Shown here piece by piece: positions 17,125 to 19,232 of a stretch of DNA of 64,000 bases. The notes beneath the pieces were generated by a model. The model saw only the letters and a list, made by a program, of their open reading frames with translations. It did no database searches and had not been told where the DNA came from. Source of the DNA: Yuukianura sp. NJ FZ-2021 (Eukaryota); contig CM102283.1 in assembly GCA_046563655.1 (NCBI GenBank), positions 806,001 through 870,000 of the forward strand, written 5' to 3'. A program made the translations under genes and the position numbers. Positions within the stretch are counted from its first letter, which is position 1, and every line of letters begins with the position of its first letter.

Positions 17125-17718
17125 TTGTCTCTCGATGTCAGTCGTATTCTCAAAATCCCCGAATCAAGTCTAAAAGAAACTTTGTGTAACTTCAAGGCAA
17201 TGGAGACCACGGAGCCAACTAGTGCAAGCACACCAAAGCAAAGTTGCCATTCCCACGGAGAGATGCCAGAGGACTGCAAGCCATGGCCTCGCATACGTAA
17301 AGTGCAGATCGAGAATCCAGTAATTGCAAATTGTTCCGTCACGGAGGTGTGTCCAGACTGCCCGAAAACACTACGTATCGAACACAGGGGTGCATCAGTC
17401 ACCATGGATTTTGAGATGATCCCGGGACTCATCGGCAGCCTATTCGAACTGTTTCTGGAACACGATGGAGCAGTCAGCGACTTGCCGGACATTGAACTCT
17501 CTCACAAAAAGAACAGGGCAAAGCTTGAAATCCGAGTCGGTAAGCGTTGGCACGTTGGAGATTGGGAGGATCCGATGGCGCAATACAAGGAGGTGGAGAA
17601 TAAGAACTATGGTCCAGAAGGAACAAGATGGTTTCGCGAAAAACACACCAACTTCAAAACTACCAAAATTGACACTGACCGAGTAGTCTTGGACCTTGAA
17701 GGAGTCATAAGACAGTAG
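17125..17718 (+). CDS. Hypothetical cargo protein A (5' part probably decayed; candidate original ATG at 16799)
   Basis: 197-codon open frame sharing an ungapped ~57-aa domain with the ORF at 18780. The upstream ATG reads MASQKS, like MASKKS of the paralog, but stops intervene. Confidence 0.6.
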   Translation: MSLDVSRILKIPESSLKETLCNFKAMETTEPTSASTPKQSCHSHGEMPEDCKPWPRIRKVQIENPVIANCSVTEVCPDCPKTLRIEHRGASVTMDFEMIPGLIGSLFELFLEHDGAVSDLPDIELSHKKNRAKLEIRVGKRWHVGDWEDPMAQYKEVENKNYGPEGTRWFREKHTNFKTTKIDTDRVVLDLEGVIRQ

Positions 17719-18082
17719 ATGCAACCTTTTCAACATTTCAACTTGTTACAACTAAACATGTTAGAAAAACAGTACAATTGTCTAGTAGTGTGTTTAGTAT
17801 TGTACAGTGAGTGCCACGAAAACCTGCACACCTCCACAGTAATTATTTTGTTTATTTTGCGAAATCTGGGGGGAAACATGTTGCACAAAACAACCTAACA
17901 AAATCCTGTGTCTAAGAGTAATTTCAACTCACTTTATAGAGTTTATAGAATATGAATATAAAATATAGAATGGAATGCTCCATATTCTATATTTTGCGAT
18001 TATGAGAAATAAAGAAAAGTTCTATATTTCGATTAGAAATATAGAATACAGGAAGAAAAATTCGCTGATTGGCAAAATTGAC

Positions 18083-18222
18083 GTGCGCACCAACTGCGCA
18101 CTAACTGCGCTTCAAGTGCGCACCAACTGCGCACCAAGTGCGCACCAACTGCGCACCAAGTGCGCACCAACTGCGCACCAACTGCGCACCAACTGCGCAC
18201 CAACTGCGCACCAACTGCGCAC
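18083..18222. repeat. Minisatellite with 11-bp unit GCGCACCAA(C/G)T, about 12-13 copies
   Basis: Directly visible tandem array; the reverse strand contains a GGTGC core. Confidence 0.95.
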
Positions 18223-18779
18223 ATAAACAATTTTCCAATTTGACATGTTGTTTAATTTAACAACAGTTTAATTTTCTTCGTGCAAGCTGTGCAATAAGTT
18301 CCATATTTCATATTTCCGCTTTGTATTTCGGTTTGCAATAACTCTCTAATTCGAATTCTCAACTCAGGTTGTGTAGAAACAGGATTTCCTCCATAGTTTG
18401 AGTTGTTACCATGGAAACAAATTTAGGGTGTGCAGGTTTTCGTGGCACTCACTGTATTTGTAAAATTGTCTAGCAATACACACCATATTAAACAATAGCA
18501 AATTTCTCTTTCTTACTGTCTCATTCTGTCTTTTTTTTTGATGAAATTTGATGAAAAAAAATAAACACTCAAAAAAAAACAATGTGAAGAGAAAGCAGTC
18601 TGTCAGTTTGGGGTGGAGCGTGGCGTATGAGTTTAATTTGTTGGGGTCCATTTCATAGTTAGTTGGTCAGAAGCATCAGCGGTCCCCTCGTGCAGTCTGC
18701 AACTGGAATCCAGGACATCAACATCCACACTCTGTTCAATAGTGTCATTTTCGAGTCTACTCTACTGGTTCACACAACA

Positions 18780-19232
18780 ATGGCTTCAAAGAAATCCATC
18801 AGTCGGCAAACGAGACCTCGACCAGTGAACGACAAGCTGTTATTGTGCTGGTTTAGCAAACGTGGGGAAGACAAAGCGATCAATATACGGCAAAACAGGA
18901 GCGCCACTGATATTGACTTTGAAGATGTGCCGAAACGCATCGGATACCTCTTCCAGATTTACATGGAGAATGGCAGTGATTCGAGAGAGTTGCCACGCAT
19001 GCAGATTACACACGACACGGAACGGCATCTCATGACGCTGAAGCATGAATATACCACTTCAGCCTCCCGAACATTCTGGAGTTGTTGCGACAAGTCGACT
19101 CCTCACCCATGGCAGGTAAAACATGACCAACAAGAAGTAGAGGAAATGACACAAGACGCTGACACTACCGACCGAGAAGAAACCAGACCGGAGTATCTTG
19201 AAACCGTCTATGAGACTACTGTCTACAACTAG
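18780..19232 (+). CDS. Hypothetical cargo protein B (150 aa), paralog of cargo protein A
   Basis: ATG in an A-rich context (ACAACAATGG); intact ORF; shared DFExxP..IG.LF....E......LP....H domain. Confidence 0.65.
   Translation: MASKKSISRQTRPRPVNDKLLLCWFSKRGEDKAINIRQNRSATDIDFEDVPKRIGYLFQIYMENGSDSRELPRMQITHDTERHLMTLKHEYTTSASRTFWSCCDKSTPHPWQVKHDQQEVEEMTQDADTTDREETRPEYLETVYETTVYN

Follow-up and report, generated by a model that had tools for sequence, protein, structure and literature searches.

Two tandem open reading frames (ORFs), ORF1 and ORF2, occur in a 64,000-nucleotide (nt) stretch of contig CM102283.1 of Yuukianura sp. NJ FZ-2021 (assembly GCA_046563655.1, positions 806,001 to 870,000; hereafter the window), where they lie, together with the remnant of a third copy, inside a 6,315-bp element bounded by terminal inverted repeats (TIRs). 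Their predicted products share a domain of 57 amino acids (aa) (Table 1). BLASTP joined the two domains by a single ungapped match of 57 residues, 15 of them identical and 33 positive (40.8 bits; pairwise E 1e-9), in agreement with the initial annotation of this DNA, which had reported the same ungapped 15 of 57 at the correct coordinates. Shuffling, named in that annotation as the test that could refute the alignment, left it significant: the Smith-Waterman score of ORF1 and ORF2 was 87, against 30.4 +/- 5.1 for shuffled pairs (n=5000), the best of which scored 58, so that none of the 5000 was as high, and the Gumbel p was about 4e-7. When the whole window was searched in six frames with tblastn, the two were reciprocal best matches (E 1-2e-6); the runners-up reached only E 0.25-0.5, which implies that the window contains two clear copies of the domain.

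The likeness was confined to one reading frame. In the nucleotide alignment of the domain the coding frame scored 83, whereas the other five frames scored between -41 and 10 and contained stop codons; the similarity of ORF1 and ORF2 is therefore at the level of the protein. Identity over the domain was 26% in amino acids and 45% in nucleotides, and 25, 37 and 15 of the 57 codons agreed at positions 1, 2 and 3, respectively, the third being near the random level; these codon-position values are not counted as separate evidence, since protein similarity was what the alignment had been selected for. Outside the domain the C-terminal tails (Smith-Waterman 19, shuffle mean 23.4) and the N-terminal parts (13, shuffle mean 18.6) scored below their shuffle means, and the extent of about 57 aa given initially was therefore right. 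A wider homology drawn by MAFFT past the domain edges was discarded, as neither tails nor N-termini were significant against shuffles. Together, these alignments point to an old duplication linking ORF1 and ORF2, visible at the protein level and in one frame only, as had been proposed. The reading frames themselves far exceed chance length: the three stop-to-stop ORFs of at least 189 codons in the element measure 249, 213 and 189 codons, and only 3 of 1000 shuffled versions of the element gave any ORF of that length (mean 0.003 per shuffle).

The initial annotation had described two tandem ORFs with candidate starts that both read MAS(Q/K)KS. MASKKS is the first in-frame ATG of ORF2; MASQKS, on the other hand, does not belong to ORF1. 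Its ATG at 16799 opens a separate ORF of 38 codons in another frame, 401 nt upstream of the first ATG of ORF1, and in this copy the two are separated by stop codons in all frames. Splicing of MASQKS onto ORF1 was considered and rejected: 34 frame-preserving GT..AG pairs exist, the best donor matches only 5 of 9 consensus positions, and one candidate GT is an A in all contigs of the DNA runs described below that cover 16871. MASQKS heads instead a decayed third copy of the family, since a remnant of the domain core, in a third frame at about 16896-16970, aligns with the core of ORF2 with one 4-residue gap. The two pieces were weak singly (E 2.1 each in the tblastn search of the window); combined in one 240-nt segment they scored 76, against 43.6 +/- 5.0 elsewhere, a value that none of the 2092 other 240-nt segments on both strands equalled (maximum 67). 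This copy, frameshifted and truncated, is closer to ORF2 than to ORF1 and lies directly upstream of the latter. As judged from these alignments, the locus is a tandem array of three family copies, one of them decayed, and the two ORFs initially described are its surviving members.

The same region could also be read as one longer gene, with the upstream piece (16799-16985) and ORF1 as two domains of a protein that is broken here and intact elsewhere. The pieces are adjacent, co-oriented and about 215 nt apart, ORF1 lacks the N-terminus typical of the family, and a contig from the second of the organism labels introduced below (label B) spans the whole of 16789-17228 and differs there by 21 substitutions and 2 gaps. 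The stops in all frames between the pieces of this copy, the lack of credible splice sites connecting them and the existence of ORF2 as a single-domain form with its own ATG make this arrangement quite unlikely.

The decayed copy, ORF1 and ORF2 are all contained in the element, within which the order is gene A (a gene with a C2H2 zinc finger), two arrays of the motif CGGTGCC, the decayed copy, ORF1, a nested repeat and ORF2. The element begins with AGT and ends with ACT, and a perfect 6-bp target-site duplication (TSD) lies immediately outside both ends. Between its TIR arms (192 nt), complementarity is 98% in a stretch of 89 nt and 92% in one of 98 nt. That two small inverted repeats had been inserted separately was ruled out, as GTTATA was found only at the outer ends and at neither inner edge; the 6,315 bp were therefore inserted as one piece. 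Pfam, applied to the 83 six-frame ORFs (45 aa or longer) of 13400-20100, matched a single ORF, with the C2H2 finger; elsewhere in the window 146 ORFs reach 75 aa or more, and the 17 of them with Pfam matches all belonged to non-mobility families. By these family assignments, polymerase, integrase, protease, ATPase, capsid and transposase are absent from both the element and the window. Rfam gave no match at E <=0.1 in 13000-20500. The ORFs had originally been described as cargo, with a check against Mavericks proposed; what holds is that they are genes inside a mobile element with TIRs, a TSD and ends of the Maverick type, whereas the element, at 6.3 kb, contains no Maverick core gene.

Table 1. 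Positions of the element, its ends and its contents in the window.
Feature	Position	Strand	Details
Whole element	13591..19905	.	6,315 bp between TIRs; without transposase, integrase, polymerase
Left TSD, GTTATA	13585..13590	.	Sequence reading, script-confirmed
Right TSD, GTTATA	19906..19911	.	Sequence reading, script-confirmed
Left TIR	13591..13782	.	Outer end AGTTAGTAGA; arm comparison, script-confirmed terminus
Right TIR	19718..19905	.	Outer end TCTACTAACT; arm comparison, script-confirmed terminus
Gene A, main ORF	14571..15320	+	249 codons; C-terminal C2H2 zinc finger (Pfam)
CGGTGCC tandem array 1	15547..15753	+	18/36-bp period
CGGTGCC array 2	16685..16770	+	5 units, 18-bp spacing; ends 29 nt upstream of the MASQKS ATG
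Decayed third copy	16799..16985	+	MASQKS ORF 16799-16915 and domain-core remnant ~16896-16970 in another frame
ORF1	ATG 17200 to stop 17718	+	172 aa; frame open from 17077 (213 codons)
57-aa domain of ORF1	17365..17535	+	BLASTP, shuffles, window tblastn, frame test
Nested repeat between ORF1 and ORF2	17803..18456	.	Perfect 30-nt inverted arms 17803-17832 and 18427-18456
ORF2	ATG 18780 to stop 19232	+	150 aa; starts MASKKS; frame open from 18663 (189 codons)
57-aa domain of ORF2	18873..19043	+	BLASTP, shuffles, window tblastn, frame test

No relatives of the two proteins were recovered. Neither matched any family of Pfam, PHROGs, PADLOC or NCBIfam at E up to 1, in keeping with the initial statement that the domain was unrecognised, and no toxin, protease, kinase or defence family appeared in these curated-family scans. 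Among solved structures, a profile search of the PDB by sequence reached a best E of 0.91. A phmmer search with ORF1 against 1.84 billion representative proteins returned a sole match (E 8.9e-4, 1,228 aa), which was rejected as spurious, as it consists of identical EF-hand/IQ-like repeats and its score was summed over 6 stretches. For ORF2, a word-index search covering proteins of 82-263 aa only gave 3 candidates, none of which scored. In the Atlas, ORF2 had no usable match and the best score of ORF1 was 0.78, under the lead threshold. The domain profile produced 243 pattern matches in viral contigs and 592 in metagenome contigs, none of them confirmed, and the 21-nt end of the TIR had no match in viral or metagenome contigs. 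As a control, the PhyH enzyme encoded in the window found 1,289 relatives, none above 57% identity, the nearest named ones (54-57%) being those of amphioxus, tick, barnacle and scorpion. This ceiling of 57% implies that the lineage is unsampled in the protein library and that blanks in the homology searches are weak evidence; across such a distance a short, fast-evolving protein would escape detection. The absence of relatives is thus largely due to the unsampled lineage, and the domain, which has no name, may constitute a new family.

AlphaFold modelled ORF2 with a mean predicted local distance difference test score (pLDDT) of 37.5 and a 95-aa piece of ORF1 with 50.4 (core 62-64), both of low confidence. 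In the fold check suggested in the initial annotation, both of these low-confidence models had the order strand-strand-helix-strand-strand over the domain; they share one two-row alignment and hence are not independent, and no structural match was obtained, the searches remaining at noise (best E 1.8 for Foldseek against PDB and 0.16 for BFVD; best Z 3.9 for VIA-align wide). Such noise, coming from models of this kind, indicates neither a new nor a known fold. The predicted beta-beta-alpha-beta-beta order may resemble that of small modules such as the protein G/L B1 domain and the beta-grasp folds. Both proteins are hydrophilic (grand average of hydropathy -0.7 and -1.1) and slightly acidic. 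In ORF2 the N-terminus is basic (isoelectric point 10.4) and the tail strongly acidic (net charge -9), and five cysteines precede the domain in ORF1, with none such in ORF2.

Copies of the element's parts exist elsewhere in the genome. Contigs of four DNA runs, three from one sample (organism label A) and one from another study (label B), were aligned to 12500-21000 with a likeness threshold of 80%. Some of them, identical to the window, span both junctions of the element (13292-13620 and 19876-20518), while other contigs, under both organism labels, differ by 5-13% (87-95% identity) over the TIRs, gene A, ORF1 and ORF2; these parts are therefore repeated in the genome. The summed contig depth, which is not a copy number, was in run X1 31-61 in the flanks, about 47 over gene A, 212-279 over ORF1 and 561-658 over ORF2; over the nested repeat it was 1,500-2,700 in that run and up to 15,000 in run X2. 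Among the 15 joints listed, of 33, none runs across 13590/19906. In one contig of run X3, position 14153 in the left subterminal region is followed directly by 19717, where the right TIR has its inner edge; the shorter side of this contig is only 20 letters, and it may represent a short deletion derivative of the element.

The strong differences in summed depth between parts of the element would be expected if a transposon had captured a host gene family, by transduplication as in Pack-type elements, the domain then being that of ordinary cellular genes and its copies passengers without a role for the element. The C2H2 gene, which contains introns, looks host-like as well, and 74 insect families of mobile units with cargo only have been reported (Pannagram preprint 10.1101/2025.02.07.637071). 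The depth over ORF1 and ORF2, however, is 4-15 times that of the flanks, and, rough guide though depth is, this suggests that most copies are repeated together with element sequence. Neither was any host-like relative present among the 1.84 billion representative proteins, a library without this lineage. Capture of a host family is, in our opinion, unlikely.

Differences among the copies bear on whether the ORFs are under constraint. The samples consisted of the 40 of about 900 differences and the 32 of about 1,500 contig records that were listed. Four of the five ORF1 records listed were gapless over 313-398 nt despite 22-42 substitutions, in contrast to none of the four non-coding records listed, which had 10-12 gaps each (Fisher p 0.048). 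Thirteen of the differences listed fell within ORF1 or ORF2; eight were synonymous, and four of the five replacements were conservative: one M>L, one V>I and two K>R. The share of synonymous changes to be expected is 0.21 when all changes count and 0.32 when only transitions do (binomial p 0.002 to 0.03). None of the 13 lies within the 57-aa domain. The gapless ORF1 records and the 8 of 13 synonymous changes hint at purifying selection on ORF1 and ORF2, in line with the protein-level selection originally suggested, and we infer that such selection maintains the copies.

If, conversely, the ORFs were relics of an old duplication in a repeat, open by history and under no present selection, it would be understandable that one of the three copies has already decayed and that a high-copy repeat has been inserted between ORF1 and ORF2. 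A neutral relic, however, would preserve neither two frames of 189-213 codons without stops nor a similarity restricted to one frame, and the third codon positions of the domain, matching at a near-random 15 of 57 at 26% aa and 45% nt identity, together with the bias of inter-copy differences to synonymous changes, argue in the same direction. We regard relics of this kind as very unlikely.

Besides its main ORF, gene A has probable upstream exons near 13871-13969 and 14220-14458. Good donor sites lie at 13970 and 14459 and good acceptors in front of 14220 and 14571, yet the second donor is out of phase with the 249-codon frame, which means that either the model or this copy is imperfect; the finger is of the C2H2/C2HC type. 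No homolog of the main exon was found among proteins of 136-436 aa. The two CGGTGCC arrays hold 15 of the 17 CGGTGCC sites of the window, where 2.3 are expected by chance and 17 were reached in none of 100 shuffles; they could be arrays of binding sites, for example for the element's own C2H2 protein. The nested repeat carries an 11-bp tandem array, TGCGCACCAAC x 12.6 (18084-18222). Its summed contig depth of 1,500-15,000, compared with 30-60 in the flanks and already high from about 17612, implies a very abundant family similar to miniature inverted-repeat transposable elements, present under both organism labels.

Elsewhere in the window, host genes occupy 36759-63260. They comprise a PhyH dioxygenase, a multi-exon gene of the Lips family (39115-43197), a MADF fragment, an ERGIC_N gene, an aminotransferase, a 717-aa coiled-coil ORF with a PH domain, and cysteine-rich ORFs with EB modules. 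As a set, these genes suggest an ecdysozoan, probably an arthropod. The Pfam families of the 17 matching ORFs outside the element were PhyH, Lips, MADF, ERGIC_N, PH, EB module, aminotransferase, beta-propeller and C2H2. The stretch 32606-35001 is duplicated in tandem (period about 1.05-1.23 kb, four blocks 86-94% identical) and includes two hydrophobic ORFs on the minus strand (32606-33103 and 34534-35001), neither with a Pfam match. Two adjoining long ORFs of 303 and 213 aa, also without Pfam match, lie on the minus strand at 4719-6267; the second may resemble the C-terminal end of a reverse transcriptase from a retroelement. The segments 25076-25190 and 28323-28437 form a direct repeat of 115 nt, 91% identical, its copies being 3.2 kb apart.

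The explanation that we favour, and consider probable, is that ORF1 and ORF2 are the survivors of a three-member array of a lineage-restricted family of small proteins, and that the array is a passenger of a non-autonomous DNA transposon, 6.3 kb long, which has ends of the Maverick/Polinton type and is moved in trans. A gene has been duplicated in tandem at least twice, two of the copies stay open and are alike only as proteins, and the array travels in a unit whose insertion was a cut-and-join reaction with 6-bp staggered cuts. Because the element encodes no enzyme for its insertion, it depends on one supplied in trans. The supplier would be an integrase of the Maverick/Polinton type, since a 6-bp TSD, long TIRs and AGT...ACT ends are hallmarks of Mavericks, while the ends of IS3EU/GingerRoot elements are TA..TA. 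As to what the proteins do, we can offer only the doubtful suggestion that they are non-enzymatic and soluble, and probably nuclear adaptors or regulators: a compact beta-beta-alpha-beta-beta module flanked by fast-evolving charged tails, which would serve the element itself, through expression or chromatin, and would not form a toxin/antidote pair.

Several observations weigh against this explanation. The end motif of the element, AGTTAGTAG, is not an exact (AGT)2, the motif rule comes from vertebrates, and no autonomous partner of the element was seen. The depth over gene A resembles that of the flanks, whereas that of the ORF2 region is about 10 times higher, so that the parts may have had separate histories and this copy of the element may be chimeric. 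The hints of selection come from a small sample chosen by the tool, 13 of about 900 differences and 9 of about 1,500 records. Both structure models have low pLDDT and are not independent; the guess at function was drawn from composition alone; and ORF1, ORF2 and gene A are gene models predicted from the DNA sequence alone.

Transposon-borne orphan genes are already a known kind of thing, and what the locus adds to the many described is one unnamed protein family, a modest gain that carries no surprise. If a complete Maverick with the same ends is present in the genome, the locus would connect the spreading and duplicating of small genes, in an invertebrate lineage of which little has been sampled, with virus-like transposons. 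A more far-reaching possibility is that the element is a stripped-down Maverick, of which only ends and cargo have been kept, and that the duplicated proteins form a novel selfish or counter-silencing module, for instance as two diverged paralogs that target one another or the host's chromatin. This would constitute a second, independent case of virus-like transposons spreading functional animal cargo, and we give it the slightest of chances.

The initial annotation had likewise thought of an effector, an anti-silencing factor or a toxin/antidote-like pair, which would here be a selfish module on a vector derived from a Maverick. The Maverick-type ends of the element and the linkage of two genes with divergent tails are compatible with this idea, and Mavericks of nematodes provide a precedent, as they carry intron-containing cargo and a toxin-antidote element has been found within a TIR transposon (preprint 10.1101/2022.07.12.499685). 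ORF1 and ORF2, however, are homologous to each other, unlike the toxin and the antidote of the nematode example. They have no likeness to any toxin, protease, kinase or defence family, and there is no complete Maverick in the window. No result of the analysis points to an effector, to an anti-silencing factor or to a toxin/antidote pair. A selfish module of this sort is extremely unlikely.

Among the elements with which the carrier can be compared, IS3EU and GingerRoot share with it the 6-bp TSD. Their termini are TA..TA, occasionally TG..CA (PMC10045372), whereas the element ends in AG..CT and has no transposase. The resemblance to Mavericks/Polintons is closer. These have 6-bp TSDs and long TIRs of hundreds of nucleotides (PMC8969392, PMC10045372, PMC8097293), measure 15-40 kb (PMC8969392) and, in vertebrates, end in 5'-(AGT)2//(ACT)2-3' or 5'-(AG)3//(CT)3-3' (PMC8097293). 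The element matches them in its perfect 6-bp TSD, its inverted ends of about 190 nt and its AGT start and ACT end, its ends thus resembling the Maverick/Polinton type. It differs in its end motif, which is no exact tandem of AGT, in its length of 6,315 bp, against 15-40 kb, and in lacking genes for a protein-primed DNA polymerase B, a retroviral-type integrase, a packaging ATPase, an adenain-like protease and the major and minor capsid proteins. A statement on the Maverick end motif was reportedly also made by Kapitonov and Jurka in 2006. Falling short in core genes and in size, the element therefore cannot be classed as a Maverick; by analogy, it works like a non-autonomous Maverick derivative that carries only cargo.

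Cargo adjoining a TIR, including intron-containing genes, is described for nematode Mavericks in the preprint cited above (10.1101/2022.07.12.499685), where it consists of wasp proteases and krma kinases. The position of gene A, which contains introns and adjoins the left TIR, parallels this arrangement. ORF1 and ORF2 differ from that cargo in resembling neither proteases nor kinases, whether in sequence or in fold, and their carrier differs in having no viral genes. The 74 insect families of the Pannagram preprint are comparable in another respect: they too are mobile units with protein-coding cargo and no transposon genes, defined by presence/absence polymorphism. With TIRs and a TSD, no transposase gene and several copies, it has the features of a non-autonomous, cargo-carrying TIR element, and it is a clean case of a short element that has Maverick-type ends and carries only cargo.

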